Assembly (NCBI GenBank): GCA_965140445.1
Contig: OZ223236.1
Coordinates: forward strand, 3,650,498 to 3,714,497
Origin: Candidatus Ozemobacteraceae bacterium
GTDB lineage: Bacteria > Muiribacteriota > Ozemobacteria > Ozemobacterales > Ozemobacteraceae
Direction of reading: 5' to 3'
Length of the DNA: 64,000 nt
Part shown: one piece after another, positions 17,381 through 59,108 of the stretch
Numbering within the stretch: the first letter of the stretch is position 1
How the letters are laid out: each line of letters begins with the position of its first letter
Translations under genes and position numbers: made by a program
Notes under the pieces: generated by a model
Told to the model about the DNA's origin: nothing
Seen by the model: only the letters and a program-made list of their open reading frames with translations
The model's database searches: none

Positions 17381-20095
17381 TTACCCATTCCTGCTATTAA
17401 CTGTAGAATTTTTTGCACCATCCTTGTTCTCATCCTTAAAGTTTAAAAGGTTTTCAAACCCAGCTTTATCAGTAACATGAGGCAAAACAAGCTCCAGATT
17501 AGACTTTTCCAACTTAATTAGATTAGCCAGAGATTGATCCATAGTCTGCATAAACTCTTTTGATGAAGTTTGCATAACCGAAGGAATCTGTTCAGCCTTT
17601 GCTTCTTTAATTAGATTCTTCACTGCATGATTACAGATTAAAAGTTCATATGCAAGAGCTCTGCCCTTTCTATCAGATCTCGGGATAAGTTTCTGGGAAA
17701 CAATTGCTCTCAAGACTCCCGCTAGTTCAAGCCTTACCTGCTCCTGAAAGTCTGCGGGAAAAGCTCCAATAATTCGATTTATACTTTCCCCAGCACTAAT
17801 TGTGTGCAGTGTTGAAAAAACCAGATGTCCTGTTTCAGCTGCAGTCAAAGCCAATTTGATTGTTTCTGGATCACGCATTTCACCAACGAGAATAATATCT
17901 GGATCTTCTCTCAAAGCGGATTTAAGGGCTTGAGCAAATGAATGGGTATGTGTTCCCAGTTCTCGTTGATTAATACTACAACGCTTATGTAAATGGACAA
18001 ATTCAATCGGATCTTCAATAGTAAGTATGTGTTCAAATCTTTTTCGGTTAATTTCATCAACCATTGACGCCATAGTTGTTGATTTGCCAGAACCGGTTGG
18101 ACCAGTTACAAGAACCAGCCCCTGACGATTATCGCAGATTTTCTCAAAAACACTTCTTGGAAGTCCCAATTCTTCAAAACTAGGTATGTTTGATGGAATC
18201 AAGCGAAAAATTCCACTTAATCCATGCCTTTGCTTGAATATATTTGCTCTGAAGCGCCCCACGTGCTTTACTTCGTGAGAAAGATCGACTTCCCACTCTT
18301 TTTCAAACTTTTTTCTCTGCTCTTCATTTAAAAGAGTAGAAAATAATTGTCCAGCCTTCTCTTGATCTACTGAAGGAAGATTTGTCCTTATTAACTCTCC
18401 GTGAATTCTAAACATTGGAGGCAAACCTACGTTCAAATGTAAATCGGACCCCTTCATTTCTTTAAGCTGGGACAAAAGGTCATCAATAGACCTATATTCA
18501 GATAAAGGCACTATGGGACGGTCTTCAAAAACAATATTTTCTGGATCAAAAGAAGCTAAATCTACTTTTTCATTGGAAAGAATCTTCACAATTTGATCAG
18601 ATCTCAGCTGATGCAAAAAGGAAACAAACTTCTCAATTTCAACTTCAGATAAGGTTACAAGCATCTGGAGGACACTCGAAAACGCTTTAAATCCTAAGTT
18701 TTTAAGCGTTTTTTCACTCCAAAATGACAGGTTCTTTTCTTTAGAAAACAGTTGAATTAATAATGGTTTCACAACTTTTTCAGGAGTCATGCTGCTTAAA
18801 CCACTTAAAATTGCATTTCTAACAGATAATGCACCGTCGTTAAAGTTCAAAATAAGCATATCCACAACATACTCAAGATCAAGCTTACAAAGAGCTTTTG
18901 CAGCCCAAACTCTAACATTTGGATCAAGATGCTTATCAACAAGATTCATTAAAGATCTTGCTGCCAATGGGTCTCTTCCCTCACCAAGCGCTTTACATGC
19001 CCAGTGAACCTTATCAAGATTTTTACTGTTTAGTGCTCTAATTAACTCTTCTCTGGCCCTTGGTAAGAGATGAGAAAGTGTATGACAAGCCAGATGTCGG
19101 ATAACCCAGACAGGGTCAGTAAGAGCTTCTACAAGAATTCTAATTCCTTCTTGATCTGGATTTTGCCCTAATGCTTTTAAAGCATAATATCTTTCATCTG
19201 GAACATCGCTTGTCAACATTTTCTTAAAAAACTTTGTGCTCTTTTCTCCAAGAATTTTACCAATGATGACAATCAATTCATCCTTCAATTCTGGCCCTTT
19301 GGTTTTCATCAGGGCAAGAGCTTCTTTTAGAGTCTCTTCACCTCTTCTGGCTAAAACATAAGAAGCCTGATATCTCATTAAAGGCGAGCTTTCAAACATT
19401 CCTGCAAATAAAAGCCCTAATCCCTTTTCACCGGGCAAGTATTCAAGTGCGGCCATTGCATATAATCTTACGGTTGGATCTTTGGACAACAATAGCTTTC
19501 GAATCTGCTTAAAAGCTTTATCACCACTAATATCTATAAGTAATTTAAGGGCCCAATATTTTTCGTGCAAATTACCCTTTGCAAAAACCTTCCTTATTGC
19601 AACTACCAACTGCTCGCCATGTGGAACCAGTACGCGATTCAAATGTCTTCTTAAAGCGAAGCTTGGGTTGACCATCTGGCGAATTAAAAAATCAAGCGAC
19701 TCAATTCCTTCCAGTTTCAAAATAAGATCAACTGAACGAATTTTAACGTCATCCTTCTCAGGCTTATTCAATATTTCTTTTAATATGCTGACTTCAAGAT
19801 GTCCGGTGTCTCCAAGAATGTAGAAAACCCTATCCCTTGCAGGGTATTCAGCATGGTTTAAAACAGCCTTTAAAGGTTCAACAACCTTTTCAATATTCCT
19901 TGCCAGTATTGCTGAAGACAATTCTTGAATCTCATCATCAGGAATAACAAGGCATTTATAAATTAGAAATAACAAGAATTGGTCATTTGAAATATCCGAA
20001 GCTTGCTTTAATAGTTCTCTTACATCAACTTTAAGCCCATTTTCTACTGCCAGCTTTAACTTGGCAAACTTTTGCCCTGGGGTTAATATTCCCAT
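17381..20095 (-). CDS. Fusion protein: N-terminal HEAT/PBS-lyase-like repeat region (~520 aa) + C-terminal PilT-type type IV pilus retraction ATPase
   Basis: The C-terminal 350 aa carry Walker A GPTGSGKSTT, the Asp box, the His box and PilT motifs. The N-terminal half is repetitive alpha-helical HEAT-like units. Confidence 0.8.
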   Translation of the reverse strand: MGILTPGQKFAKLKLAVENGLKVDVRELLKQASDISNDQFLLFLIYKCLVIPDDEIQELSSAILARNIEKVVEPLKAVLNHAEYPARDRVFYILGDTGHLEVSILKEILNKPEKDDVKIRSVDLILKLEGIESLDFLIRQMVNPSFALRRHLNRVLVPHGEQLVVAIRKVFAKGNLHEKYWALKLLIDISGDKAFKQIRKLLLSKDPTVRLYAMAALEYLPGEKGLGLLFAGMFESSPLMRYQASYVLARRGEETLKEALALMKTKGPELKDELIVIIGKILGEKSTKFFKKMLTSDVPDERYYALKALGQNPDQEGIRILVEALTDPVWVIRHLACHTLSHLLPRAREELIRALNSKNLDKVHWACKALGEGRDPLAARSLMNLVDKHLDPNVRVWAAKALCKLDLEYVVDMLILNFNDGALSVRNAILSGLSSMTPEKVVKPLLIQLFSKEKNLSFWSEKTLKNLGFKAFSSVLQMLVTLSEVEIEKFVSFLHQLRSDQIVKILSNEKVDLASFDPENIVFEDRPIVPLSEYRSIDDLLSQLKEMKGSDLHLNVGLPPMFRIHGELIRTNLPSVDQEKAGQLFSTLLNEEQRKKFEKEWEVDLSHEVKHVGRFRANIFKQRHGLSGIFRLIPSNIPSFEELGLPRSVFEKICDNRQGLVLVTGPTGSGKSTTMASMVDEINRKRFEHILTIEDPIEFVHLHKRCSINQRELGTHTHSFAQALKSALREDPDIILVGEMRDPETIKLALTAAETGHLVFSTLHTISAGESINRIIGAFPADFQEQVRLELAGVLRAIVSQKLIPRSDRKGRALAYELLICNHAVKNLIKEAKAEQIPSVMQTSSKEFMQTMDQSLANLIKLEKSNLELVLPHVTDKAGFENLLNFKDENKDGAKNSTVNSRNG

Positions 20096-38978: not shown

Positions 38979-40592
38979 TTAAATTCCAGAAATAGAATAT
39001 ACAAGGCCGCTACCACCAATAAAAGCAAGCGCTCCAATCGCCTTTTCTGGCATTCGCCCTTCAAGTTCCATGGCTTTACCAAAAAGTCCAAACACTAGCG
39101 GATGAACAAGAAATGGCATAGCAAAAATGAAAGGAATCATACTTGATGCTTGATTACCAAACATACCGCCTTGAACTGCGGCGAAGAGTCCAAAATGAGA
39201 GATAGCTGCAGATTTGGCCATAGAGGCATATCCAAGATCCATTCCACCAATGTGCAATAAAAAGAATCCACCAAAAATTGCCGTAAGTTGCCATCCAAAA
39301 GAGAATTGCATGAGCCCTTTAACTTCTTTGCCTTCATCACCATTTGCGGATCTAAGAGTTTTAATAGACCAAAAAACCAGACACAAACCTATTAATGAAA
39401 TGGTTATAGCTGCCGGAACGAGGAGAGCCCCTTGCTTAACACTCATAGCAAGTATGGTAAAAACAAATACATGGCCGAAAAAGGGAATATTAATCATAAT
39501 TGGAGCTCTGGCGGCAGCTTCAGATCCAAGATCCCCAGCAGTACATGCCCCCGTTAAACCAGCATGAGATAAAGCTCCAGCCATACCAGGAGCAAGGTTT
39601 CTGATTTGATTGCTATTCGCAGCAAAAATTAAAACTGCCAATCCACCAAACATCCAAAAAATCTGGCCGAAAAAGCCATATGCCATCACAGAAGTCATTC
39701 CTTCAAGTTTAAATGCCTCGACAATTCTTGACCCGCCAATCATAAAGTTTGCTGCCAATACCACGGGAATTCCAGCAAACAAAAGAGCTCTGCCTGTTGG
39801 TCCAAGTTGCCAGTTTGAAAAAAACATTCCAATAGTGGAGGAAATAATCATTGCAAAAAAGATCTGTGGCAATGAAATATAAGACTTTGCAAAAACAGCT
39901 ATTTTAAAACTCAGTGTCAAAACGGCTACAATAAAGATGATCTCCAGCAAGCCTTTTCTGATATAGGCAGATTTATTTTTTATTGTTGCCCGATGATCAA
40001 TAAAAATTATTGATCCAACAATTCCAATATAAGCTATTAGAGGATAAAGTTTGGCAAGAGTATCCTCAGGACTAGCCCCAACTATCATCTTTATGATTCC
40101 TTCAATTCCTAGAAGAATGAACATAGATCTAACCAGAAAAACAAGTTGAGTTCTTTTGGTACCAAGAATTACCTCTTCTTGTGATGGAATAACAATATCT
40201 TCTATTTCTTCAAGATGCTGTCCTGCAATAATTTTTCGTAATTCCTGGCCCCCGACAAAAAATGAAGCTATCAAGGCAATGATGGTTACTTTACTAATTA
40301 AGCCAATTAAAGGAAACTCCTTAAGACCGGGGGTACCAACACCACTTGAAACAAGAGCATACCCCATTCCAAGACCGAAAATAACTATAATCAGTATTGG
40401 AGAGTATCTTGTTCCTGCAACAACAGTTCTAGAAATTAAAACCATTGGTAAGATTAAAAAAAGAGTCAACCAAAACTGGTTTAAGAACTGCAACTTTGCA
40501 ATTTGTTCAATCAAATGTTCCATAATAATTTCCTCAACTAATTTTTTACTTTTGCTCTGCAACATTTTAATTAAAACAAAAAGCTTTTGCAA
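38979..40592 (-). CDS. Polytopic membrane protein, putative permease of unknown family
   Basis: About 12-14 hydrophobic helices with Gly-rich segments. No specific family recognised. Confidence 0.5.
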   Translation of the reverse strand: MQKLFVLIKMLQSKSKKLVEEIIMEHLIEQIAKLQFLNQFWLTLFLILPMVLISRTVVAGTRYSPILIIVIFGLGMGYALVSSGVGTPGLKEFPLIGLISKVTIIALIASFFVGGQELRKIIAGQHLEEIEDIVIPSQEEVILGTKRTQLVFLVRSMFILLGIEGIIKMIVGASPEDTLAKLYPLIAYIGIVGSIIFIDHRATIKNKSAYIRKGLLEIIFIVAVLTLSFKIAVFAKSYISLPQIFFAMIISSTIGMFFSNWQLGPTGRALLFAGIPVVLAANFMIGGSRIVEAFKLEGMTSVMAYGFFGQIFWMFGGLAVLIFAANSNQIRNLAPGMAGALSHAGLTGACTAGDLGSEAAARAPIMINIPFFGHVFVFTILAMSVKQGALLVPAAITISLIGLCLVFWSIKTLRSANGDEGKEVKGLMQFSFGWQLTAIFGGFFLLHIGGMDLGYASMAKSAAISHFGLFAAVQGGMFGNQASSMIPFIFAMPFLVHPLVFGLFGKAMELEGRMPEKAIGALAFIGGSGLVYSISGI

Positions 40593-44071: not shown

Positions 44072-44704
44072 CTATCCTTCTATTTCTAAATCACCGAACT
44101 CATTTTTCAAGCAATCAGAGCAGATTCCATGCGAAAAAACAGTTTCAGAATTCATTGTAATGTATTCTTCTAATGTAAACCAAGTGCCATCTACATTTTG
44201 AATTTTCCGACAATATGAACAAATAGACAACAATTCAGATAAATATTTAATTTTTTTCTTAGCTTCTTTCAGGTTTTTATTTGTTCTAATTAATTCTTTA
44301 GTCGTTTTTGCCAATTCATTATTTAAAACTGAAATCTGTCGGATAATACTATCAGTACGTTCCGTTTCAGGTATTCCAATCAGCAACCAATCTTTTTCCA
44401 TTTTAAAAATTTCACAATATAAAGGTATGGATAATGGATTTACAAAGTCTAAACTGATTTTCTTTTCTTCAGGAAACTGACTTATAAGTTCCTTTAGTTT
44501 ATTAACAGTTGCTGAAGTCAAAATAGTTGAGATACTATCACCTGGCTTAATATTACTTCCAGAAGTCTTTTTAAGATTTAAACTACTGGAATTAAGAATA
44601 TAATCTTCACTAAAAGAAAAAAAAGCAATTTTACTTGTGGAACTAACGTATTCAAGCACATAAGAAAAAATGGCTCCCTCATTTAATGTCACAATAAAAA
44701 CCAC
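44072..44704 (-). CDS. Small cytoplasmic protein: unknown N-terminal domain - coiled coil - Cys4 module (paralog F)
   Basis: C-terminus LSELLSICSYCRKIQNVDGTWFTLEEYITMNSETVFSHGICSDCLKNEFGDLEIEG. Overlaps the upstream B12-binding protein gene by 16 nt. Confidence 0.75.
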   Translation of the reverse strand: MVFIVTLNEGAIFSYVLEYVSSTSKIAFFSFSEDYILNSSSLNLKKTSGSNIKPGDSISTILTSATVNKLKELISQFPEEKKISLDFVNPLSIPLYCEIFKMEKDWLLIGIPETERTDSIIRQISVLNNELAKTTKELIRTNKNLKEAKKKIKYLSELLSICSYCRKIQNVDGTWFTLEEYITMNSETVFSHGICSDCLKNEFGDLEIEG

Positions 44705-45804
44705 TCTCTTGCTAGTTTTTTTGCTTCTATGACATCATTTGCAAAACCATTTGCCCCAATTCTCTCCCATAGCTTGGGATTCTCATTAAAGCTTCGTCCC
44801 CCAACCATTATTTTAGTGTCTTTTAAAGCCTCTTGATTCTTTATTTGAAAAATCATCTGCTGCACCACTGTTAGATTAAAAGGCATCGTCACAGAAACAG
44901 CCAGAATGTTTGGTTTAAATTCGTAAGATAAGTTTAAAACGTCTTGAACAGGAGTATTTGCACCAAGGTATCTAACTGTCCATCCATCGTATTCCAAAAT
45001 ATCAGCAATCATCCACGCCCCTAACTCATGAAATTCGTTAGAACATGCGGTTACAATTGCCCTCTTATTGTTTGGACATGATTTAAAATCAAGTTGAGCT
45101 AACCAGGCCATAACTCTATTAACAATTGCTGAAGTAAGATGCTCCTGAGCGACCGAGATTTCGCCTCGCTCCCAGAGACAGCCTATCTCGTACATTGCCT
45201 GTTGCAAAACATGGATATAAAATTCTTCCAAGTCAGCAATTGAATGAACACTTCCTTTTGCCAGGTTTAGACTTCCTAAGTGGTCTGCCTTTAGCAAAAA
45301 CCGCATAAGTTCATTTTTGCAACTGCTCCATCTTCCATTTGTGCATGAGCTTTGGATTAAAGGACTTCTTGCTAGATCCACAAAGTCTTCATGATGAGCA
45401 ATCATCCAATTGTAAACATCGAGAATCTCATCTTTAAGTTCTATAGGAAACAATTGCTCTACAGCCACTTTCCAAGCTTTTAACTCAATAGGAAAATACT
45501 CAAAGGAAAACCCATGGTTGGAGTATGTTTTATAAACCCATAATACAGTGCGACTCAACAATTCAAAATTATTAAGCGAAAAAACCGATGTCATAAAAGC
45601 AGCATGGTTTTTGTGGTTATCCAGCATTTTTTGCAAATGATTAGAGCCGATGAGAGAAATCACATTTTTGTTTTGCGACAAATTGCAATCTACTGATTCA
45701 ATTAGCTTTGGACAAAGTATCTCATACTCTTCGGCAGCCTTTTGGGAAACTTTTCTTATTGAGCGAGTGGTTTCTATCAAGCTTTCAATAGACAACATGG
45801 CCAT
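44689..45804 (-). CDS. Cobalamin-binding protein (helical N-terminus + B12-binding_2 four-helix bundle + B12-binding Rossmann domain). No DNA-binding or catalytic domain.
   Basis: DxHxxG-type motif SNEFHELG followed by the Rossmann-like pattern LGANTPVQDV...ILAVSV. Confidence 0.7.
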   Translation of the reverse strand: MAMLSIESLIETTRSIRKVSQKAAEEYEILCPKLIESVDCNLSQNKNVISLIGSNHLQKMLDNHKNHAAFMTSVFSLNNFELLSRTVLWVYKTYSNHGFSFEYFPIELKAWKVAVEQLFPIELKDEILDVYNWMIAHHEDFVDLARSPLIQSSCTNGRWSSCKNELMRFLLKADHLGSLNLAKGSVHSIADLEEFYIHVLQQAMYEIGCLWERGEISVAQEHLTSAIVNRVMAWLAQLDFKSCPNNKRAIVTACSNEFHELGAWMIADILEYDGWTVRYLGANTPVQDVLNLSYEFKPNILAVSVTMPFNLTVVQQMIFQIKNQEALKDTKIMVGGRSFNENPKLWERIGANGFANDVIEAKKLAREWFLL

Positions 45805-45884
45805 GCTTACTCCTCTCGGGCAATTATCTATTAAGACTTTTCTATTTATTCATTTTATGATATCAGGAATCAAAATTTATGAAA

Positions 45885-45921
45885 ACAAAAAAACGGCACA
45901 AATAATTGTGCCGTTTTTTTG
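45885..45921. terminator. Terminator hairpin downstream of ortB
   Basis: cggcacaa-ataatt-gtgccg flanked by A7 and T7. Confidence 0.55.
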
Positions 45922-45933
45922 TTTTCAGGTTGT

Positions 45934-47331
45934 TTAACCCAGAATACCATTTAGCCATTCTAACGGCATCTTGATATCTTCGGCAATAAACTTTCGATCA
46001 GCTTCTGACCATTGATCAATCGGCACATTTTTCAATGCATTTTTCACATAAGATCTGCGCAACTTTTCCATTTCTTGTCTCTGACCTTTAACCTGGGAAA
46101 GTTTTTCTGGAATAACAATACTTTTTCCATTTATTCCTTCCGTAGGGTTTCCTCGACGAACTTCAATCCCCATTTTTCTTGCAAAAGCAAGCTGGGCATT
46201 GTGGTGTTTTCCTGCGCCAGTGTATTCAGTCTCCTGAACGACAATAATTTGATCTCGATCCATTTCTCTAGCCAGCGCCACCGCTCCCGTAACACTAGTG
46301 TTTCCGGCTGGCCCGCGTTCTATTCCCTCTAGCTTTGCAAGCAATTCAGTTATGTAAAAAACTTCACCCTGATTAACTAGAATGTAATCATCCATGTATC
46401 TCAGACTTCTTGCGGCATTTCGTGGAACGTCTACTCTATCCGGCCAGGTGGCAAATGGAACGCCAAAACCTGTGTGCCCAGTGGTAAAAGATTTTTTGTT
46501 AAAATCTTTGTCTGAAGCCATATGAAGACCACTCAAGTCAACGGAGCAAGCCACAATCTTAGAGTTTGCTCCAGATTGAATTAACCCCCTCGCAGTACCT
46601 GTCAGGTTTCCCCCACCGGCATGAGTAACAACAACTGCATCAGGATCTTTTCCATACCTGGCTCGAACCTGACAAGCAATCTCCGCCCCAAGAGTTTCAA
46701 CACCTTTTATTCCAAAGGGTGTATAGAGTGAAGCATTGAAAAAACCCGTTTCTTCCAGAGTTAATAATAAACAATAAAAAAGTTCGGGCCCGACAGACAG
46801 TTTTATAACCTCTGCCCCAAATGCTTCGCACTTTCTACCCTTCTCGACGATTTCAGGTTGCCCAATTCCCATTGAATCAAAAACTTCTTGAAGAATAATG
46901 CATTTCAATTTTCTTTGAGCCGCCTGGGAGGCAACCGCTGCCCCATAGTTTCCAGAAGTGGCAGCTATGACTCCAGAGTATCCTTTTTCTTTCGCTACAA
47001 AAGCTGATATGGAGGCTCGCCTGGCTTTAAAGCTTCCAGAGGCATTTGCAGCTTCATCTTTTAAAAGGATTGTTGCACCTTTTCCTTCAGGACAACCAGC
47101 TCTAACTGCTTCAGTTAAATTGGTTAACTCAAACAAAGGAGTACTGCCAACTTTGGTTTCAGCCTGAATTTTAGCAATGTCTTCAAGCTTAAAACCAGCA
47201 TCATTCATCATTCTTTCGTAATCGAATGCCAGTGCTCCAAGCGTATAATCATCGTAATCAATCCCCATTGAGGACTTCATTATTTCATTTTTCCGAGCCA
47301 TTACAGCCTGATAGGAAGTATCTCTTTTCAT
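45934..47331 (-). CDS. ortB: 2-amino-4-ketopentanoate thiolase beta subunit (PLP-dependent, Trp-synthase-beta fold)
   Basis: PLP fold-type II lysine region ASGSFKARRA. About 465 aa. Follows small ortA and ord. Confidence 0.7.
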   Translation of the reverse strand: MKRDTSYQAVMARKNEIMKSSMGIDYDDYTLGALAFDYERMMNDAGFKLEDIAKIQAETKVGSTPLFELTNLTEAVRAGCPEGKGATILLKDEAANASGSFKARRASISAFVAKEKGYSGVIAATSGNYGAAVASQAAQRKLKCIILQEVFDSMGIGQPEIVEKGRKCEAFGAEVIKLSVGPELFYCLLLTLEETGFFNASLYTPFGIKGVETLGAEIACQVRARYGKDPDAVVVTHAGGGNLTGTARGLIQSGANSKIVACSVDLSGLHMASDKDFNKKSFTTGHTGFGVPFATWPDRVDVPRNAARSLRYMDDYILVNQGEVFYITELLAKLEGIERGPAGNTSVTGAVALAREMDRDQIIVVQETEYTGAGKHHNAQLAFARKMGIEVRRGNPTEGINGKSIVIPEKLSQVKGQRQEMEKLRRSYVKNALKNVPIDQWSEADRKFIAEDIKMPLEWLNGILG

Positions 47332-47615
47332 ACTTGTCCTCCCAAACCAATATTTAAAAGCTCTTCAACTGTTTCACCAAAATCATGGCGATAACATGGC
47401 GAAATAATTTTTAATTCACCCTCAACGGTTCTTCCAATTAGGGTTTTTATAGCTACAATATCTCCAATTTTTGAGTCTGACTGCAAAAAGCCAGACATTT
47501 TCATTATGTATGGGGTGCACCTGGTATCTTCTGGAACTTGCGGAGCCCTCTGATCTGGTGTCAAAATAATTTTCTCAATTTCGACCCAAGTGCCAGCTTT
47601 CACACTTTCAGACAT
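47328..47615 (-). CDS. ortA: 2-amino-4-ketopentanoate thiolase alpha subunit
   Basis: 95-aa ORF overlapping ortB by 4 nt, located between ord and ortB as in known ornithine clusters. Confidence 0.6.
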   Translation of the reverse strand: MSESVKAGTWVEIEKIILTPDQRAPQVPEDTRCTPYIMKMSGFLQSDSKIGDIVAIKTLIGRTVEGELKIISPCYRHDFGETVEELLNIGLGGQV

Positions 47616-47616
47616 C

Positions 47617-48657
47617 TTAGAAGCCTCTTTCGTATGCCGATTTTCCCATAAGACATGCAGGAATAGGAAGATCTGACATCCTCTTTAAACCAGGTGAAGC
47701 TTTTAAAACTATTGGAATCATATTTACAGCCGCTGCCATAGTGCCTTTACCGCCAGGGATTTCAGGGCTAATGCTCATATTTATTTCTGGATCACCAATA
47801 ATTTTTATATAGTCACCAGTTTCAACATTTTCTGTTCCTGGATGAATTTGCTGTGGATGAATCAATTTAATAACCTCTTCACCTTTTCTATAGCCAATTC
47901 CAATGTGTCTACAGCCAGCAACCATACCAGGCTTAACTTTTACAACTGGCGTTTCTCTTTCAGTGTTTGAAATAATAGGCTCACGAGTTTCTTCAATATT
48001 ATCAACTTCTAATCCAATTGCATCTGAAATCATTTTTATTGATTCAGGGAAGCCAATATGCCCAACGATTGAACCATCTTTTAAACCTGCTTCAAACTCC
48101 TCAGGTGTAGATCCTACGCCCTGTGTTTCCATAACCGTTTTTCCAAAAGGAGAAAGGTCATTGATTCTGCTAGCTTCAATTCTCTTTACATTTAAACATG
48201 CACCAGAAAGATTAATAATAAGCTGATCAAGGACAAAACCAGGATTAACACCAGTTCCAAGAAGTGTTACACCATTTTTTACAGCAAGCTCATTAAGTTG
48301 TCTTGCTAATTCAGGCTCTTGCGCTTGCGGGCATGCCATTTCCTCTGCAATAGTAATTACATTAATTCCTTTTTCCAAAACAGTCTTCAGACTGTCAAAA
48401 ACATTTTTAGTAAAAGAGTGAATAGCGTGAAGACAAACATCTACTTTATCTTTATCAAGAATTTCATCAGGGGAGGCATAAATCTTTACGCCAACATTTT
48501 TCCCTAAATTAAGAACTTCACCGACGTCTTTTCCAACGATTTCCTCACGTCTTTCAATAACACCAACAACTTCAATTCCTTCTTTTTCAAGCATGAGTTT
48601 TACCATGCCGCTTCCCATTGCTCCGAAGCCCCATTGAACGACTCTGATTGGTTTCAT
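47617..48657 (-). CDS. ord: 2,4-diaminopentanoate dehydrogenase (DapB-like NAD(P) oxidoreductase)
   Basis: N-terminal Rossmann VVQWGFGAMG. About 346 aa. Synteny with ortAB. Confidence 0.7.
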   Translation of the reverse strand: MKPIRVVQWGFGAMGSGMVKLMLEKEGIEVVGVIERREEIVGKDVGEVLNLGKNVGVKIYASPDEILDKDKVDVCLHAIHSFTKNVFDSLKTVLEKGINVITIAEEMACPQAQEPELARQLNELAVKNGVTLLGTGVNPGFVLDQLIINLSGACLNVKRIEASRINDLSPFGKTVMETQGVGSTPEEFEAGLKDGSIVGHIGFPESIKMISDAIGLEVDNIEETREPIISNTERETPVVKVKPGMVAGCRHIGIGYRKGEEVIKLIHPQQIHPGTENVETGDYIKIIGDPEINMSISPEIPGGKGTMAAAVNMIPIVLKASPGLKRMSDLPIPACLMGKSAYERGF

Positions 48658-50908: not shown

Positions 50909-51184
50909 TTACCATTCTTTTTCTTTATCCTTTATAAAAATGAGAATCAAAACTGTTACAAGAAAGCACTGGATTAAAAACCAGGGCCAACTTGAAGTTT
51001 CTGGGGCCATCTCAAAAAAAACAACTAATGCCACAAATGGGAAAAATAGAAAGATTGAGAATACTTGTTCATGAATGAACTTCACTAATCTAATCTTTGA
51101 AAGCCTGGCCTTAAACAAGAGACCAACACATAAACATATGGTTAAAAATACTTCTTCCAAACTAACGCCCTCAATATTTTCCAA
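50909..51184 (-). CDS. Small membrane protein, hypothetical
   Basis: 91 aa with three hydrophobic helices. Overlaps the upstream gene end by 14 nt. Confidence 0.35.
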   Translation of the reverse strand: MENIEGVSLEEVFLTICLCVGLLFKARLSKIRLVKFIHEQVFSIFLFFPFVALVVFFEMAPETSSWPWFLIQCFLVTVLILIFIKDKEKEW

Positions 51185-52832
51185 GATTTAACTTAACAAT
51201 AGCTTTAAGCCTTTCGATGGAAAAAAACTTATCTTCAAATGCAGCCAGGCTAACAAGACGATACAATTCTGAATATTTACCATCATTAAACATGTTTTTG
51301 CCAGTTTGAATTGAATTTCTATATTCGACAGGAACTTTTCTTTTATAATGCCCTACTCTCCAGCCTTTTTTTGAAGAAATTGGAATTCTAGCCAAAAAAG
51401 GATCAGAAAGCCCCATTCGGTCTATAATTAGAGGTTTGGTTCCGGCCCAATATCCAAGCATTCCATTAAAATCGTTTTCTAAATACTTTACTCCTACAGA
51501 TGCAATCTGAGCCCCAATTTGTGACCACTCAAAATCAGGAAAAACCTTGTTTTTATCATTATAAAGATATGCATAAAGCGAACAAACATCAAAATAATAC
51601 CCTCTTTCGTCGGCAATTCCAGAATCCAGGTTAAAGTTTCTATGTTCTAGCCCTGTATTTAGTGGGGTAAAAGGAAAAGTGATAGAAAAAATCGTCAAGA
51701 AAATCAATAAACTGTTTAAACAAAAGTATTTACCGCAAACTTCGCCTGAAAAAAAACTTTTGTAAAAACAAACCAGTGCTATAGCTGCGGCTAAATAAGA
51801 GAATGAAAAAAATCTTCCCCGCATAAAATCACCGCCAACACTCAAAATATACAAAAAATTAAAAACTATCCCTACCGACAAAGCCTTTGAAAAAGCAGTA
51901 TTGGCCTTCCAAAGAAGAAAAATAGCGACAAATGGAATTAGAATAGTGATAGGATCAGCCCTAAAAGTAACAATAAAATATTGAAGGCCTTGATTTACAA
52001 GATCCATACGCGCAATTCCAGTATTCAACTTGGCATAAGCTGTATTGGGAAAAAGGGCACCGTAATACAAAAGAGAAAAACATGACCAGATAAAAGTAGG
52101 AAAAACCGCAACAATGATGGGTTTAATTATACTTTTTCCTGAACTTTTTCTAACAAAAAGCAGGGCTATTAATGGAAAAAAGAAAAGAGAAACCAAATCA
52201 AGCCTGCAAATTGGTAAAAGCGACCATAGGATAATGGCCTTCCAAAAGTCACCATTTGCTCCACCTTCATGGGCACGGGCATCATAGTTAATGGATTTCA
52301 AAATAAAAATTGAACTGATAAGGTAAACCAGGATATTTTCCAATCCCGATGAAGTATAGTCAAAGAATCCATTTGAGACAATAAGCAATAAACCTAGACT
52401 CAGAAAAGCTTTAGGCTTAAAACTATTGTACAAAACAACTAGCAGTATAGAGAATATGACCATTGAAAGAAAAAACTGACCAAAAAAAGCGTCGCTGGTA
52501 AAAAATCTTATAAAAACTAACAATGCAAACCACAGCGGACTTGTAAAGGATTGAACTCTTTGGCCTGAATTCCAGTTAGGACCATTTCCTGCGTGAAATT
52601 GTTCCACACTTCTGAAAATTATGTATGAATCATCGGATACCCAGGCATTTTTAAAAAAAACAAACGAAAGTAAAAGAATTATAAAGCCAACAAGAATGAA
52701 GCTTGTATTCGCATTAATTTTATTTTTTTCAATTTTAGTATTATCCATCAATCCCCCAGATCCTTTAAAAGGTATTGTAACAACTGAATTGAAAAAAACA
52801 AAGTCGAATATTCGGTTGAAATTACTGGACAA
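51171..52832 (-). CDS. Polytopic membrane protein, GT-C-like glycosyltransferase candidate
   Basis: About 12 TM helices with a cytoplasmic/periplasmic C-terminal domain. No definitive motif. Confidence 0.5.
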   Translation of the reverse strand: MSSNFNRIFDFVFFNSVVTIPFKGSGGLMDNTKIEKNKINANTSFILVGFIILLLSFVFFKNAWVSDDSYIIFRSVEQFHAGNGPNWNSGQRVQSFTSPLWFALLVFIRFFTSDAFFGQFFLSMVIFSILLVVLYNSFKPKAFLSLGLLLIVSNGFFDYTSSGLENILVYLISSIFILKSINYDARAHEGGANGDFWKAIILWSLLPICRLDLVSLFFFPLIALLFVRKSSGKSIIKPIIVAVFPTFIWSCFSLLYYGALFPNTAYAKLNTGIARMDLVNQGLQYFIVTFRADPITILIPFVAIFLLWKANTAFSKALSVGIVFNFLYILSVGGDFMRGRFFSFSYLAAAIALVCFYKSFFSGEVCGKYFCLNSLLIFLTIFSITFPFTPLNTGLEHRNFNLDSGIADERGYYFDVCSLYAYLYNDKNKVFPDFEWSQIGAQIASVGVKYLENDFNGMLGYWAGTKPLIIDRMGLSDPFLARIPISSKKGWRVGHYKRKVPVEYRNSIQTGKNMFNDGKYSELYRLVSLAAFEDKFFSIERLKAIVKLNLGKY

Positions 52833-53087: not shown

Positions 53088-56000
53088 ATGGAAAATCAAA
53101 AAAAAAGAATACGGCAAAATCATTTTTTGATTCTATTATTCTCTACAATTATTTTTGCTATTTCTGCCTTGGTAAACATACATTTCGCAAAAATAGACGT
53201 TGAAAAAATAGCAATTGAGAGAGGAAGGCAGATTGTAATTGACCAAGCCCACCAGCTTGAAAGGGAGTTTTCGTCCCTCCAAAAATCCTTGCATCTGATT
53301 GCCGCTAATTTTTCCCGATATAGCAACTGGCCGAAGGCAAAACGTCGCGAGACTATTCTAGGATTATTAGAGGTAACTCTTGAAAAGCACGAAATGGCCA
53401 ATGGAATCTTCACCCAATGGGAACCGGGTTTCCCGGACAATCAAACGGCATCAAATGCATTTTTCAGCGATGAATCTGGCGGATTTATTCCATACTGCAT
53501 ACGACTTCCTGATGGAACTGCCTCTTTCACATATCTAACCGATCTGGATAGCCCAAAAGTTTTGGAAGCTTATAATTTTGCTCGACAAACTGGGCAGGAT
53601 TTTCTCATGCCCCCGTATTTTTACCTTATCGGAAAAGAACAGGTTGAGATGACAACAATCGTCACCCCTATACCGGGAGAAATTTTCAGACCTGGCGTTG
53701 TTGGAGCCGATATCTCTCTAAAATCAATCCTGAAAAAAGTTAGCAAACTAAGACTTTTCAAAACTGGTTATGGATATTTGTTATCAAATCAAGCAAAGTT
53801 AATTTCGCATCCAAACCATAGTTTAGTTGGAAAAACTTTGACCGAGGTAAACTCCAGCCTGACAAAAGAGCAGGATGCTGTTATTAAGGGGCAATCTTAT
53901 TATGGTGAGGGAACCTCTATAACAGATAAAGGCAAAAAAGTTTTAAGATTCTTTCAGCCGCTTAAACTTTCTGATACAGAAAACTTCCTTGTCTTAGGTG
54001 CTACCATTCCGATGTCAGAAATTTTAGAGGATATAAAGCCGGTCAAACTTTTCTCCTGGCTAACATTTTTCATTGCTCTGGTTATGGTCGCCGCGGCCTT
54101 TTATTTTGGGGTTTCTTCGACAAATAGCATAAAATCAGCTATTGCGGAAAGAATTGAGCTTGAACTTAGATTCAAAGCTATTTTTAACAGTTCTTTTCAA
54201 TTTATGGGAATTTTGAATCCAGATGGAATACTACTTGAAGCTAATGAAACATCGCTAAATGCAATTGGCGAAAAAAAATCAAACGTAATCGGAAAGCCTT
54301 TTTGGGAAACTCCCTGGTGGCCAAGGGACTCTAAAGCTAAAGAAATTCTAATAGATAGTATTCAAAGGGCTGCAAAAGGGGAAACAATCCGATTTGAAGC
54401 TGCTCACCAAACCAAAACATCAAAACAGCTACTGATGGATTTTTCTTTAAAACCAATATTCGATGAAAATGGAAAGGTTTCTTTAATTATTCCTGAAGGA
54501 CGTGATATAAGCGATTATAAGTCTGCCACAGCAGCTCTGGAAGAAAGCGAGAAAAAATATAGAAGTCTTTTTGAATCTTCCAAGGATGCCATTATGACCA
54601 TACATCCACCAAATTGGAACATTGAGACCGGAAATAAAGCTTTATTGGAAATGTTTGAAATTCCAAACAAAGAACTACTTAAACAACATTCGCCAGCCTC
54701 CCTATCGCCAGAAACTCAACCAGACGGAGCGCTTTCAGCAAATAAATGCCTAAAATACTTAAAGATTGCAAGCGAAACTGGAAGCTGTTTTTTTGAGTGG
54801 GAACACAAAAAATTGAATGGAGCTTGTTTTTCCTGCACAGTTCTTTTAACCAGGGTTGGAACAATAAAAAACCATTTCATTCAAGCCACGCTTCGTGACA
54901 TAAGTGAACAGCTTAAGTCTCAAAAGGAAAGAGAAGAACTTTTAGCGCAACTCAATAGAAAAGAAACCATGGAATCTCTTGGGCAGCTAGCTGGCGGGGT
55001 TGCTCATGACTTGAACAATATGCTTGGTGGAGTAATGGGAGCTACAGAGCTTCTTCAGCTTCACTTAAGTGATAACCCAAAAGCCCAGGAATACATTGAT
55101 ATGATTCTCAAATCCACAGAGCGTGGAGCAGAGCTGATTAAAAATCTACTCGCTTTTGCGAGAAAAGGTAAGTTGATATATTCTCCAGTAAATGTTCACC
55201 TTGCGATACAAGAAGCGGTAAGACTCTTGAACAGAACAATTGATAAGAGAATTAAAATTGAAATCGCTTTGGATTCAGCAAAAAGTATTGTTATTGGTGA
55301 TTTATCACAACTACAAAGCGCTATTTTAAACCTCGGCGTAAATTCAAGTCATGCAATGCCAGACGGGGGAGTTCTTGGATTCTCCACCAGAGAAGTTTTC
55401 CTCGACTCAATTTATTGCGAAGCCAACCCTTTTAAAATTGATCCAGGAAACTATATTGAGATAGAAATACGGGATACAGGCTCTGGGATTCCTCAAGAAA
55501 ATTTAAACAAAATTTTCGAGCCATTTTTCACTACTAAAGAGACAGAAAAAGGCACAGGCTTAGGGTTAGCTGCTGTTCATGGAATGATTGAACAACATAA
55601 GGGAGCCCTTAATGTTTACAGTGAAATAGGCAAAGGAACTGTTTTTCACCTAATGCTTCCTTTAACTGAAGACATGGAACTTTTTTCAAAACCAGAAGAT
55701 GAAGTTGTTATGGGTAAAGGATTGATACTTCTAATTGATGATGAAGAGATGATTAGAGCCACAGCTGCGATTATTTTAAAACGCCTTGGATATGACGTAA
55801 TGCTTGCGAGAGATGGAAAGAAGGGCCTGGAACTTTTTAAATTTAACAAAGAAAAAATAGATCTTGTAATTCTAGACATGGTAATGCCTGAAATGAATGG
55901 TATTACCTGCTTTGAGAAAATAAAGGAAATAGAACCAAAAGCCAAGGTAATAATGTCCTCTGGCTTTTCATCAGACGAAAATGTTGAAGCTTTGCTTGCA

Positions 56001-56561
56001 CAAGGCTTAAATGCCTTCATAAAAAAACCATACACAACAGGACGCTTAAGCAAATCAGTTGCCTCTGTATTGGGGGAAGATAGCACCAAAAAATCCTTAG
56101 AAAAACCAACTGGAAACGATTCGTTGGCTGAAGCCAGAGCTGAAAAGCTAAAGGTTGTTTCAAATAGTAAAAAGATTTTGGTAATGGATGATCAGGAAGT
56201 CATTCAAATGCTCTTAACCAATATGCTTTCTTTCTTTGGATACTCAGCAGAATGTGCTTCAGATGGTGAACAGGCTTTAAACATGTTTAAGCGAGAATCC
56301 ATGACTGATGAACCTTATGCAATGGTAATTACAGATTTAAAAGTATTAAAGGGTATGTCTGGCTATGAATTAGCAGAGAAATTGAGAAGTTTTGACCCAG
56401 ACGTAAAAATTATTGCCGCAAGTGGAGATGAAAATGATCCCATCATGACCGATCCTGTTCACCACGGGTTTGCGGGTAAATTGTCTAAACCATTCTACAC
56501 ACAGGCATTACAGGACGTTCTAAGAGCAAACCTCGGTTCTGATAGTTATTCAGAACCATAA
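53088..56561 (+). CDS. Multi-sensor hybrid histidine kinase (periplasmic Cache-like, PAS x2, HisKA, HATPase, REC x2)
   Basis: H-box GGVAHDLNNMLGGV. G-boxes DTGSGIP/GTGLGLA. Two receiver domains with conserved Asp (LVILDMVMPEMNG, VITDLKVLKGMSG). Confidence 0.85.
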   Translation: MENQKKRIRQNHFLILLFSTIIFAISALVNIHFAKIDVEKIAIERGRQIVIDQAHQLEREFSSLQKSLHLIAANFSRYSNWPKAKRRETILGLLEVTLEKHEMANGIFTQWEPGFPDNQTASNAFFSDESGGFIPYCIRLPDGTASFTYLTDLDSPKVLEAYNFARQTGQDFLMPPYFYLIGKEQVEMTTIVTPIPGEIFRPGVVGADISLKSILKKVSKLRLFKTGYGYLLSNQAKLISHPNHSLVGKTLTEVNSSLTKEQDAVIKGQSYYGEGTSITDKGKKVLRFFQPLKLSDTENFLVLGATIPMSEILEDIKPVKLFSWLTFFIALVMVAAAFYFGVSSTNSIKSAIAERIELELRFKAIFNSSFQFMGILNPDGILLEANETSLNAIGEKKSNVIGKPFWETPWWPRDSKAKEILIDSIQRAAKGETIRFEAAHQTKTSKQLLMDFSLKPIFDENGKVSLIIPEGRDISDYKSATAALEESEKKYRSLFESSKDAIMTIHPPNWNIETGNKALLEMFEIPNKELLKQHSPASLSPETQPDGALSANKCLKYLKIASETGSCFFEWEHKKLNGACFSCTVLLTRVGTIKNHFIQATLRDISEQLKSQKEREELLAQLNRKETMESLGQLAGGVAHDLNNMLGGVMGATELLQLHLSDNPKAQEYIDMILKSTERGAELIKNLLAFARKGKLIYSPVNVHLAIQEAVRLLNRTIDKRIKIEIALDSAKSIVIGDLSQLQSAILNLGVNSSHAMPDGGVLGFSTREVFLDSIYCEANPFKIDPGNYIEIEIRDTGSGIPQENLNKIFEPFFTTKETEKGTGLGLAAVHGMIEQHKGALNVYSEIGKGTVFHLMLPLTEDMELFSKPEDEVVMGKGLILLIDDEEMIRATAAIILKRLGYDVMLARDGKKGLELFKFNKEKIDLVILDMVMPEMNGITCFEKIKEIEPKAKVIMSSGFSSDENVEALLAQGLNAFIKKPYTTGRLSKSVASVLGEDSTKKSLEKPTGNDSLAEARAEKLKVVSNSKKILVMDDQEVIQMLLTNMLSFFGYSAECASDGEQALNMFKRESMTDEPYAMVITDLKVLKGMSGYELAEKLRSFDPDVKIIAASGDENDPIMTDPVHHGFAGKLSKPFYTQALQDVLRANLGSDSYSEP

Positions 56562-56663: not shown

Positions 56664-59108
56664 ATGATTAAGCAACCAGATCTCTTTACCAGAATCTTCA
56701 GGTCTGAAAAAGAAGTTGATTCCAAAAAAAGTAAAATTGAGAATAAACCAAACTTTAATCAATCTTTGCCTGAAAAGAATTTAAACAAAGGTAAGGCAAA
56801 TGAAAATCAGCGGCAATCTTTGCAAAATAGGATAAGCATCCCCTTAAGCGGTTCAAAGATTGAATCCTATGTGGGTTGTCCTAAAAAATTTGAATTTTCG
56901 TTTGTAAGAAAAGTAAAAAGAGATTACTCGATTTCCCACTATTTAGCATTTGATAACAGCTTACATAATAGCTTAAAAGCCTTTTATAAAACTCTTTCTG
57001 CAAATTCCAATGGAGAAAAGAGTTGGCTAATGGATTTATTGAGAAAGAATTGGGATCAGCGAGGTTACCAATCAGTTGAGCATGAACGAGAATATAGGCA
57101 AATAGCAAAATCCAGCCTTGAAAAATACTTTGATTCGCACTGTAAACAAGTTAAAAGTATTCTTGAAATAGACTACTTCTTTAAAACCCGGATTTGTGGG
57201 GCAGATTTTTCAGGAAAAATCGATCGGATAGACAAAAACACAGACGGAAGTTATGAACTGATTGACTATAAAAGCGGAAACTCACCAGCAAATGCAACGG
57301 AAGAACTCAGAAAAAGTTTATCGGTTAGATTGCTTTTTTTAGCAGCTGATCAGATATGGCCTGGCAAAGTGAAAAATATTTCTTTTATTTACCTCAAAGA
57401 AAACCTTACTGTTTCAATTACAAGGCAGATGATCGACTTTGAGAAAACAAGAAGAGAATTGCAGGAAATCTGTAAAGATATTAGCCGAAATCATTTTCCT
57501 GCTAAAAAATCCATGAATTGTTCTTTCTGTGATTTTAAAGGAATGTGCACTATTGGAAAGATTCCAGAAGTTAACCCGACAAGGCTAAAAACCTTTTTAA
57601 CCTGCCCATTAAAATATTCCATGTCCTATGTGGAAAAAGCTACCAAGCTCACAAAAAAAGAGTTTTCACCTGAATTCATTTTGGATCGACCAATGCATGA
57701 AACTATTAACAAGTTTCAAGAAATTAAAGGCTTTCATAATTCGGATAGAATTCACAATGATCTATTGCAAGACTTCTTAAAAAGATTACCAGCAGATATT
57801 CAACCAGACATCCGAGAATCACTAGAGAAAGATGGCTCAACCTGTATTGAAAACCTTTTAAAGCTTTGGAAGCAAAATCCTTCAAAAGTATCTGTTAACT
57901 ATGCCCTTGAAAACCTGGAAAGCGATTTTTTCTTTTCAACCGTAATTGACAGATTAGAGGAAACAGAAACCTCTGTTACCCTGATTGATTTTAAAACAGG
58001 TCAAAAAACTTTAACAACAAGCGAATTGCGTTATGACCCAGTTGTTTCTGCCATATCTCAGGCTGCTCTCAAAAAATGGCCCGGAAAAGATATTTCTTTT
58101 AAAATGATTTTTCTAAGGTCAGGAAGTTCAATAGAAATTCCCATTGAAAAAGAAATGGGAGAATATGGTGAATGCTTGATTCAAGAGCTGATTTCCTGCC
58201 AAAAAACTCAGTCATTTTGTGCCAGAAAAGGGTCTCTTTGCAGTTGGTGTGATTACTTTGATTCTTGCGCTGAATGGAAAGTTAAACCCTATGAAATAGC
58301 AGGAGAAACCCCAGATGAGTATTCTAAACGCTTGAGATTAAGTTACTCAAAAATGAGCCTGTTCCTAAATTGTCCAAGAGCTTATAAAAAGCTTTACATT
58401 GATAGAATTTCTCCTCGACCTCAACCCTTTTTCAGCTTTGGAACAGCGATTCATGAAACATTTGAAGAAGTGTATTCTCCAACTGCGAAGCGAAATTCAA
58501 TTTCATTAGACGAGCTTTTGCAAATCTACGATAGGGTGAGAAAAAAGCATAGAGCTGGCTATGAAACTCCGGAGATGGAAGAAAATTATCGATTAGATGG
58601 AGTTCGGCAATTAACCAATTACTATAATAATTTTATTTGTGGAAAAGCTTTTAAACCTGCATTTTCAATTGAAGACTACTTTGAACTGCCCTGTGGAAAA
58701 AATGCAGTGGTAACGGGGTTTATTGACAGAATAGATAAGCTGGAAGACGGCACTTTTGAAATAGTCGACTATAAAACTGAGCCAACAATGCGAACTCAAA
58801 AAGAAATCGACGAAGATAAGCAGCTTAGTATGTATTATTGGGCCTGCAGAGAAGCTTTTAATCTTGACATCAGCAAGTTATCGCTAATAATGCTGGATCA
58901 CAATGTGAAACTGGAAACATCAAGATCCCCCAGTATAGTCAAAGATCTAATTGAAACCATTGATGGCACAGCTTTACAAATGATAAATGAAAAAGATTTC
59001 TTACCCAAAATAAACAAATATTGCAAAAGTTGTGAACACATATCCGATTGCCCACTGCGAGATGAAATAGAACATGACAGCTCTCTAATTTCCATGCAGA
59101 AATACTAG
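56664..59108 (+). CDS. Protein with three tandem Cas4/AddB-type PD-(D/E)XK nuclease domains, each with a C-x(n)-C-x2-C-x5-C Fe-S-like cysteine set
   Basis: Domain starts GCPKKF, LTCPLKY and LNCPRAYKKLYI. Catalytic IDRID...ELIDYK, IDRLEE...LIDFK and IDRIDK...EIVDYK. Cys clusters NCSFCDFKGMC, CSWCDYFDSC and CKSCEHISDC. Confidence 0.75.
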   Translation: MIKQPDLFTRIFRSEKEVDSKKSKIENKPNFNQSLPEKNLNKGKANENQRQSLQNRISIPLSGSKIESYVGCPKKFEFSFVRKVKRDYSISHYLAFDNSLHNSLKAFYKTLSANSNGEKSWLMDLLRKNWDQRGYQSVEHEREYRQIAKSSLEKYFDSHCKQVKSILEIDYFFKTRICGADFSGKIDRIDKNTDGSYELIDYKSGNSPANATEELRKSLSVRLLFLAADQIWPGKVKNISFIYLKENLTVSITRQMIDFEKTRRELQEICKDISRNHFPAKKSMNCSFCDFKGMCTIGKIPEVNPTRLKTFLTCPLKYSMSYVEKATKLTKKEFSPEFILDRPMHETINKFQEIKGFHNSDRIHNDLLQDFLKRLPADIQPDIRESLEKDGSTCIENLLKLWKQNPSKVSVNYALENLESDFFFSTVIDRLEETETSVTLIDFKTGQKTLTTSELRYDPVVSAISQAALKKWPGKDISFKMIFLRSGSSIEIPIEKEMGEYGECLIQELISCQKTQSFCARKGSLCSWCDYFDSCAEWKVKPYEIAGETPDEYSKRLRLSYSKMSLFLNCPRAYKKLYIDRISPRPQPFFSFGTAIHETFEEVYSPTAKRNSISLDELLQIYDRVRKKHRAGYETPEMEENYRLDGVRQLTNYYNNFICGKAFKPAFSIEDYFELPCGKNAVVTGFIDRIDKLEDGTFEIVDYKTEPTMRTQKEIDEDKQLSMYYWACREAFNLDISKLSLIMLDHNVKLETSRSPSIVKDLIETIDGTALQMINEKDFLPKINKYCKSCEHISDCPLRDEIEHDSSLISMQKY

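Follow-up and report, generated by a model that had tools for sequence, protein, structure and literature searches.

A single-chain array of three Cas4/AddB-type nuclease modules and the tandem-repeat family to which it belongs

Cas4/AddB-type iron-sulfur (Fe-S) nucleases are known as single domains, which occur alone or fused to helicases or to Cas1. Here we describe an 814-amino-acid (aa) protein in which three such domains follow one another in a single chain, encoded in a 64,000-nucleotide stretch of a Candidatus Ozemobacteraceae genome (contig OZ223236.1; the whole stretch is referred to as the window). It is a shortened representative of a so far unstudied family of bacterial proteins that carry two to five Cas4/AddB-like units, and comparison of motifs across this family suggests that its three modules are not equivalent enzymes. 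The view that we lean towards is that it would be a nuclease of single-stranded DNA (ssDNA) that works independently of a helicase and has a single canonical site, in the C-terminal unit, preceded by two variant modules of the Fe-S type. Within this view, the last unit is probably the principal catalytic site, and whether the upstream units are mainly accessory is evenly balanced; the architecture and its evolutionary history, as described below, we hold with considerable confidence.

Domain content, motifs and predicted fold

The open reading frame (ORF) is intact, and its start codon is validated by an N-terminal peptide that is conserved among homologues. In a Pfam scan the whole protein matches PF12705 (PDDEXK_1) in three stretches (E 7.5e-76) and matches nothing else, with no helicase domain among the hits. 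When each unit is scanned alone, it spans the profile almost from end to end: unit 1 at E 6.3e-28 (98.8 bits, profile 2-246 of 247), unit 2 at E 9.3e-17 (62.2 bits, 2-246) and unit 3 at E 9.9e-30 (104.7 bits, 1-247), all above the gathering score of 22 bits. The units are also homologous to one another, with 24.8% identity between units 1 and 2 (E 1.5e-13), 24.8% between units 1 and 3 (E 2e-14) and 21.5% between units 2 and 3 (E 0.02). A repeat search on the gene's DNA found short chance matches only; because there is no DNA-level repeat among the three units, the triplication is ancient. A sequence-only reading of this stretch had proposed exactly such an array, three PD-(D/E)XK units of the Cas4/AddB type with no helicase or other domain, and had named a PF12705 search as the way to check it; the three full-length matches bear this out, and the array lies far beyond chance.

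The motifs quoted in that reading are all found in the protein. They comprise the N-terminal cysteine motifs (GCP at 71, TCP at 313, NCP at 569), the IDR motifs (IDRI at 186, IDRL at 428, IDRI at 687), the segments that carry the DxK motif (LIDYK at 199, LIDFK at 440, IVDYK at 700) and the C-terminal cysteine triads (CSFCDFKGMC at 286, CSWCDYFDSC at 526, CKSCEHISDC at 787). Each unit thus has the claimed set of one plus three Cys ligands, the ‘iron-staple’ pattern of one N-terminal Cys and a C-x2-C-x5-C, and these residues align with the cluster cysteines of solved relatives and occupy the alignment columns in which every unit of the family has its Cys. Spacers of 19 and 35 residues separate one unit's Cys set from the next.

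The claim that all three units are ‘apparently fully active’ did not survive closer reading. We read eleven diagnostic columns (C-H-E-D-D-K-Q-Y-C-C-C) from an alignment of all units of the window protein and of 80 genome loci described below. The full RecB-family motif set (His, motif II Asp, motif III D/ExK and QhXXY) is found in unit 3 only, which has C570, H597, E601, D688, D702-x-K704, Q720, Y724, C787, C790 and C796. Unit 1 reads C-H-K-D-D-K-S-L-C-C-C (C72, H101, K105, D187, D201-x-K203, S220, L224, C286, C289, C295) and unit 2 reads C-H-N-D-D-K-V-I-C-C-C (C314, H345, N349, D429, D442-x-K444, V460, I464, C526, C529, C535). Both therefore lack the QhXXY motif, as S220/L224 and V460/I464 stand where unit 3 has Q720/Y724, and K105 and N349 replace the Glu that is invariant in the family (E601). 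Because the helix that carries Q720/Y724 is predicted to start at equivalent positions in the three units (219, 459 and 719) in an AlphaFold2 (AF2) model, the alignment register at the QhXXY columns is confirmed.

This AF2 model, built from the family alignment, has a mean predicted local distance difference test score (pLDDT) of 81 and a predicted template modelling score (pTM) of 0.65. The three alpha/beta units are each well predicted, the junctions between them have pLDDT 75-88, and the region of aa 440-560, which spans the chimeric part of the middle unit (see below), has pLDDT 75-94. Considered as rigid units, one unit alone would reach a pTM of about 0.31 and two about 0.61; because the observed value exceeds both, the model predicts a defined packing of all three units. 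Residues 1-55 are disordered (pLDDT <50). Coordinates of the gene and of its parts are collected in Table 1.

Table 1. Features of the nuclease gene and its product, in window coordinates
Feature	Residues (aa)	Position	Strand	Basis or character
Whole gene, 814-aa protein with three PDDEXK_1 units		56664..59108	+	ORF; three PF12705 matches; stop codon 59106-59108
N-terminal peptide MIKQPDLFTRIFR	1-13	56664..56702	+	Pattern KP[DN]LF..[LI]FR
Basic low-complexity tether	14-58	56703..56837	+	pLDDT; composition
Unit 1, variant Cas4/AddB-like module, putative Fe-S	59-298	56838..57557	+	PF12705; orthologue of pentamer unit 1
Unit 2, variant Cas4/AddB-like module, putative Fe-S	299-541	57558..58286	+	PF12705; chimera of pentamer unit-2 body and unit-4 tail
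Unit-4-like tail of unit 2, Cys triad and EWKVKP linker	~513-541	58200..58286	+	BLOSUM scores
Linker before last unit	542-556	58287..58331	+	PxExAGET...R.RLSYSKM segment
Unit 3, canonical RecB-family/Cas4-like nuclease, putative [Fe-S]	557-797	58332..59054	+	PF12705; orthologue of pentamer unit 5
C-terminal tail, ...DSSLISMQKY	798-814	59055..59105	+	Pattern D..L.SM.K[FY]

The segments outside the units are conserved to different degrees. The N-terminal peptide occurs in all Riflebacteria-type homologues, including a two-unit one (L038), with F8 invariant and P5, L7, F12 and R13 nearly so; among the homologues compared, those of the gut three-unit group and the two-unit ones of other phyla lack it. 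The tether that follows varies in length and composition among homologues and is basic or proline-rich and of low complexity. A basic low-complexity leader had been described before; its character stands (13 K+R against 7 D+E in aa 1-58), while its length is about 55-58 aa and not the 70 proposed, and the conserved peptide at its start had gone unremarked. The segment ahead of the last unit is conserved in all Riflebacteria-type proteins, and the C-terminal tail is common to five-, four-, three- and two-unit relatives, including those of other phyla. The Riflebacteria proteins end with it; those of the gut three-unit group and the two-unit proteins of other phyla continue beyond it with an acidic extension. 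Judged by this conservation, the N-terminal peptide and the C-terminal tail look like docking or latch elements.

A tandem-array family and the origin of the three-unit form

A word-indexed protein search returned about 30 five-unit relatives (here called pentamers). All come from metagenome bins of Candidatus Riflebacteria/Ozemobacteraceae, measure 1283-1323 aa, are built of five PDDEXK_1 units and share 36-41% identity with the window protein over 93% of the query; their source labels are ‘PD-(D/E)XK nuclease family protein’, ‘RecB family exonuclease’ or hypothetical. An exhaustive search of 1.84 billion protein representatives added a second three-unit group (P0110, 769 aa), many two-unit proteins of 550-610 aa and multi-unit forms at greater distance. 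In species-representative genomes the scan found 80 loci, among them 21 complete five-unit genes from Riflebacteria/Ozemobacteraceae, three-unit genes in four gut or rumen bins (L008, L009, L010, L040), 37 two-unit genes (from CSSED10-310, the PVC group, Aegiribacteria, Elusimicrobia/Endomicrobia, Dependentiae and one Riflebacteria bin) and 12 more distant one-unit genes from Elusimicrobiota, Actinobacteria and archaea. Viral contigs yielded distant single-unit relatives only (22-31% identity) and no tandem forms.

On this basis we define a tandem PDDEXK_1 array family by two to five units, a canonical last unit and a conserved C-terminal tail, and the window protein fits it, with a unit-5-like last unit, the full motif set in that unit and the tail SLISMQKY. 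To call the architecture very unusual, as had been done, overstates the case, since the family is widespread under generic annotations. The suggested comparison with related genomes showed tandem arrays to be common; the particular arrangement in the window protein was nevertheless seen only here. Our literature search found no description of tandem Cas4-like arrays. Two further proteins, P0135 (1118 aa) and P0136 (1138 aa), are distant relatives with a different multi-unit architecture, in which canonical PDDEXK_1 units flank a central ~550 aa that the unit hidden Markov model barely matches; one member of the P0136 cluster is labelled Hydrogenedentota.

Comparison of individual units with the pentamers points to the history of the three-unit form. 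Unit 1 is 42-44% identical to pentamer position 1, unit 2 is 30% identical to position 2 and unit 3 is 64% identical to position 5. In a sliding-window comparison the middle unit is chimeric, as aa ~297-510 resemble pentamer unit 2 and aa ~515-541 resemble unit 4; at residue 537 the BLOSUM score is 4.2 against position 4 and 1.1 against position 2, and L525, C526, C529, C535, W538 and P542 are invariant with the ends of pentamer unit 4. Pentamer unit 4, the second-best conserved, is missing as a whole unit. The arrangement [1][2 body + unit-4 tail][5] is thus most simply explained by the in-register loss of exactly two units from a five-unit ancestor. Among everything sampled, this [1][2/4][5] form occurs in the window protein only, which is a singleton at 90% identity. 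Other reductions are found among its relatives: the gut three-unit proteins and P0110 are [1][unit-3 body + unit-4 tail][5], and their middle unit is inactive; P0031 is [1][2][4][5] without any chimeric unit; and the two-unit Riflebacteria protein (L038/P0034) is [1/4 chimera][5]. Because several subsets of five orthologous units occur in one clade, independent reductions of a five-unit template are the simplest explanation.

Across the family, the last unit and the units upstream of it have evolved under different constraints. The last unit reads C-H-E-D-D-K-Q-Y-C-C-C in 100% of proteins, whether it is the only unit (n=12), the second of two (n=37), the third of three (n=5), the fourth of four (n=2) or the fifth of five (n=21); the sole exceptions are 2 of the 12 single-unit proteins, which have a gap where the first Cys would align. 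In upstream units the four Cys are retained in every case in which that column is aligned, and those of three- to five-unit proteins never retain E, Q and Y together. Some have lost catalytic residues as well. Unit 3 of the pentamers is inactive by this measure (His replaced by Gln/Arg, Asp by Ile/Val), and in the N-terminal units of two-unit proteins the catalytic residues are lost in different ways while the Cys are kept: DxK has become NxK in 12 of 12 PVC-group proteins, the Lys is Met, Ala or Val in Endomicrobia, both Asp are gone in Dependentiae-like proteins (D to N, D to F) and the His is lost in CSSED10-310. In a few Elusimicrobia two-unit proteins both units are fully canonical. Conservation among the pentamers rises toward the C-terminus, with mean pairwise identities of 57-62% for units 1-3, 75% for unit 4 and 84% for unit 5. 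These patterns suggest that what the family requires of its upstream modules is the putative cluster rather than catalysis.

Several observations weigh against the idea of one cutting unit and two helpers. At pentamer units 1, 2 and 4 the C, H, D, D, K, C, C and C columns are essentially invariant (29 pentamers) on a background in which 13-31% of columns are invariant and the E, Q and Y columns vary freely, unlike the drifting pentamer unit 3 and many two-unit N-terminal units. The metal-binding core is therefore under selection in this clade, and units 1 and 2 of the window protein, which like unit 3 retain H, D, DxK and four Cys, may still bind metal and be genuine active sites. In Leptospira Cas4 (LinCas4) the QhXXY Tyr is reported to be dispensable (PMC8610317). 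In addition, no informative conserved neighbour lies beside the three- or five-unit genes, as the Riflebacteria genes stand alone, and the geometry of the array is at best a tentative prediction: for a four-unit relative AF2 gives a pTM of only 0.38 and weak junctions.

The conserved metal-binding core and the LinCas4 result would favour three independently active nucleases in one chain, so that every unit cuts and the protein is a multi-site shredder or a processive resection enzyme. We regard this as unlikely, though it deserves a serious hearing. Units 1 and 2 lack the QhXXY Gln and Tyr and the invariant Glu, in columns that vary freely in their orthologues, and Cas4 enzymes mutated at the Gln or Tyr (Pcal_0546 Q149A and Y153A, SSO1391 Y212A) are almost inactive (PMC4176176). 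The family's upstream units have repeatedly lost catalytic residues while the gene was kept, and unit 2 is the fastest-evolving of the three, at less than half the identity to orthologues that unit 3 retains. With a canonical last unit as the principal site, the window protein's own upstream modules may nonetheless still cut.

Known relatives and genomic context

To place the family among characterized nucleases, we compared the AF2 model and the family profile with known structures. Foldseek against the PDB returned single-domain matches only, led by ACE1 (9iab and 9iac, E 3e-9) and the nuclease domain of AdnA (6ppu_A, root-mean-square deviation 3.7 A over 249 columns, E 4e-8), with AddAB, Dna2, RecE, the Cas4 SSO0001, the Cas4 of Cas4-Cas1-Cas2 complexes, EXO5 and MGME1 as further neighbours. 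A direct phmmer search of the window protein against PDB sequences found nothing relevant; the family profile gave weak matches only, in which the Cys triad of the family's unit 4 aligns to that of ACE1. ACE1, the best match by both profile and fold, is a stand-alone Cas4-family ssDNA endonuclease with a D-DxK site and an Fe4S4 cluster whose ligands are an N-terminal Cys and three C-terminal ones (PMC12094033). It differs from the window protein in being a single domain of ~275 aa, restricted to cyanobacteria and encoded with a prokaryotic Argonaute (pAgo); the window protein has three units, no Argonaute and ~16-17% identity to it. The units resemble Cas4 (PF01930/TIGR00372) in fold, in Cys pattern and, for unit 3, in RecB motifs, and PADLOC and NCBIfam give weak Cas4 matches. 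However, TIGR00372 scores 57.8 bits against a cut-off of 65, PF01930 scores 22.4 against 22.7 bits for unit 1 and does not match units 2 and 3, and the gene lacks the nearby cas genes or CRISPR array of a Cas4. By curated cut-offs the protein is neither a bona fide Cas4 nor an AddB.

The nuclease domains of AddB, AdnA and AdnB share with the units of the window protein a full-length PF12705 match and one plus three Cys that flank an H...D...DxK core. They occur, however, as one nuclease unit per subunit, and the window protein has three in one chain without a helicase or helicase-like domain or an adjacent helicase gene. This likeness raises the possibility of an AddB-like subunit, a nuclease or end-binding partner of a separately encoded AddA/UvrD-type helicase in which the upstream units replace AddB's inactivated helicase scaffold during double-strand-break resection. 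In keeping with this, the closest single-unit sequence relatives are the C-terminal nuclease domains of UvrD-helicase fusions, AdnA and AddAB are structural neighbours, NCBIfam gives weak matches to AddB and AddA models, and the length is close to that of Helicobacter pylori AddB (778 aa). The addA and addB genes are normally adjacent; across the ~80 loci the nuclease gene has no recurrent helicase neighbour, and no helicase gene lies in the window. The AddB models (TIGR02786 and relatives) align to the nuclease segment only and reach 54.7 bits against a cut-off of 486.5, the AddA model of NCBIfam is likewise a weak match far below its cut-off, and neither Pfam nor Foldseek detects a helicase-like fold. 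We consider an AddB-like role quite improbable.

Two other precedents concern how several nuclease folds can act together. In RecC, a PD-(D/E)XK domain that has lost catalysis forms an ssDNA hoop beside the active RecB nuclease (PMC1185551), an arrangement that matches the family's pattern of degenerate upstream units and one canonical unit; RecC differs in having no Fe-S cluster and in being part of a helicase complex, and units 1 and 2 of the window protein keep H/D/DxK. The second precedent is the toroidal PD-(D/E)XK exonucleases, in which several nuclease folds come together around DNA. Lambda exonuclease and RecE form toroids. Cas4 SSO0001, like RecE a Foldseek neighbour, is a toroidal decamer (PMC4176176). 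These are homo-oligomers of identical active subunits. We considered a covalent pseudo-toroid, a fixed closed ring of this kind; because the units of the window protein are non-equivalent and covalently joined in one chain, and because their number varies (2-5) across the family, a closed symmetric ring is disfavoured, and the low pTM of the four-unit relative also argues against it.

Examination of the window and of related loci shows where the gene sits. Its immediate neighbours are a histidine kinase, a small protein without a Pfam match and an M3 peptidase. Further out, the flanks share gene clusters with the five-unit Riflebacteria loci, both upstream (c27, c18, c15, c29 and c19, with genes for PALP, OrtA, DAP dehydrogenase and a Sel1 protein) and downstream (c2, c4, c3 and c6, with a ~195-aa protein, the M3 oligopeptidase of c4 and the rhomboid of c3). 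Because these flanking genes match, the window locus is orthologous to the five-unit loci. The kinase (53088-56561, plus strand) is a 1157-aa hybrid sensor that reads as Cache-like, PAS, HisKA/HATPase and two receiver domains; it lies between the Sel1 gene and the nuclease gene, which adjoin in most Riflebacteria five-unit loci. Together with an adjacent ORF of 553 aa (51171-52832, minus strand), it looks like an insertion into the ancestral synteny. That ORF and another of 537 aa (38979-40592, minus strand) have no Pfam match at E<=1e-5.

A more informative context is found in the two-unit relatives. DNA-uptake operons with ComEC and metallo-beta-lactamase (MBL) fold genes contain the nuclease gene at 16-18 of ~39 two-unit loci (~40%), in two unrelated lineages. 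In CSSED10-310 the order is thymidine phosphorylase-like, ComEC, ComEA-like, MBL-fold protein, nuclease and a weak DHH-family protein (L041-L043, L046, L048-L050, L057; for example L007:1178-10922, where DeoC is also in the operon), and in Elusimicrobia/Endomicrobia it is ComEC (SNase + DUF4131 + Competence + MBL), nuclease and MBL-fold protein (L068-L075, L079; for example L074:2460-8799); the separate MBL-fold protein is ~340 aa. One Elusimicrobia bin has its ComEC-linked nuclease gene broken into three ORFs of 91, 174 and 303 aa (L075:5307-7077), either as a pseudogene or by an assembly frameshift. The difference in gene order between the two lineages argues for a functional link between nuclease and ComEC, and these operons point to a part in the handling or degradation of imported DNA; no mention of a link between ComEC and Cas4-like proteins was found in the literature. 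The link is limited to two-unit lineages and does not reach the window's clade. In the PVC group the conserved neighbours (TrkH/TrkA, tetratricopeptide repeat proteins, proteases) are uninformative.

The same survey bears on whether the protein could be an anti-phage or anti-plasmid defence nuclease, an immune effector akin to solo Cas4. Solo-Cas4 and ACE1 relatives do act against invading DNA (PMC12094033, PMC5704561). One two-unit locus, that of the only two-unit Riflebacteria gene (L005/L038, bin nDJH6bin19), has as its divergent neighbour a gene for a 940-aa helicase of the SNF2 family with DUF3670, and an Eco57I-type N6-methyltransferase is encoded close by; the arrangement was seen once and does not recur. 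The window gene is single-copy in a chromosomal synteny conserved across Riflebacteria, tandem forms are absent from viral contigs, and PADLOC gives only weak or generic matches (Cas4-type models, DruK at E 4e-4 and an Argonaute-associated Cas4-like nuclease model at E 1e-3). A scan of the window's ORFs found no helicase, ComEC, cas, CRISPR, restriction-modification (RM) or defence genes, as the sequence-only reading had noted for CRISPR and RM. The defence role that it had entertained is weakened by the synteny and the poor PADLOC matches, and we judge it very unlikely. Less likely still, and scarcely credible, is a non-functional remnant left when a deletion damaged a five-unit gene: unit 4 is missing and the protein is a singleton, but the ORF is intact, the deletion is exactly in register, the chimeric unit folds well in the model, all 12 Cys, the catalytic-core residues and both conserved termini are kept, and comparable reduced forms exist in other lineages.

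Elsewhere the window encodes chemoreceptors, transporters and kinases, along with a cluster for ornithine fermentation. The ornithine (Stickland-type) genes form two blocks (10473-16900 and 44689-48657). The first contains two alanine-racemase-fold genes (10473-12724), a PF13941 ‘MutL’ protein (12706-14040) and a D-ornithine/lysine aminomutase-like B12 enzyme (14699-16900), and the second a B12-binding protein (44689-45804), a PALP enzyme (45934-47331) and 2,4-diaminopentanoate dehydrogenase (47617-48657). On the minus strand lie a 904-aa protein with an unusual fusion of HEAT repeats to a C-terminal type II/IV secretion ATPase (T2SSE; 17381-20095) and an RNase J-like beta-CASP gene (Lactamase_B + Beta-Casp + RMMBL; 8336-9910), 47 kb from the nuclease gene and with nothing that links the two. 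Rfam found nothing in the window at the gathering threshold, and a promoter and terminator scan around the nuclease gene gave background level only.

Proposed function and significance

We propose that the protein is a cytoplasmic single-chain array of three paralogous ‘iron-staple’ PD-(D/E)XK modules that would need no helicase. The C-terminal module, the family's invariant and fully canonical copy, would be the metal-dependent nuclease and, by analogy with ACE1, AdnA/AddB, Cas4, Dna2 and EXO5, would act on ssDNA that enters next to the Fe-S domain. Modules 1 and 2 would be divergent copies that have retained the putative Fe-S ligands and the H/D/DxK metal-binding core and lost QhXXY; their most probable task is to bind the same DNA strand or to guide it, and secondary cuts by them are possible. 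The likeliest origin of the three-module form is a deletion, in register, by which unit 2 of the five-unit ancestor became joined to the tail of unit 4. For the cellular role, housekeeping processing of DNA ends or ssDNA is the likeliest candidate, and we put it forward tentatively.

A bolder and frankly speculative version, to which we give little weight, is of a single-chain machine in which Cas4-like [4Fe-4S] hoops thread one DNA strand to one cutter. The number of hoops (1-4) would set the footprint or the product length, the ancestral role would be the processing of ComEC-delivered ssDNA for nutrition or recombination, and the close spacing of the putative clusters might in addition allow a redox relay.

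These results describe a Cas4/AddB-type domain that is repeated two to five times in one chain, in a family that has so far gone unstudied. The family follows a rule: the last copy is always canonical, the cluster ligands are kept in every copy, and whole units are gained or lost in register. It thus amounts to a natural experiment in the use of an Fe-S ‘staple’ domain once catalysis is gone, and in how a nuclease of this type may work without a helicase. The handling of imported DNA in natural transformation and DNA scavenging is poorly defined in uncultured phyla, and the ComEC link of the two-unit relatives suggests a cytoplasmic enzyme for such DNA.

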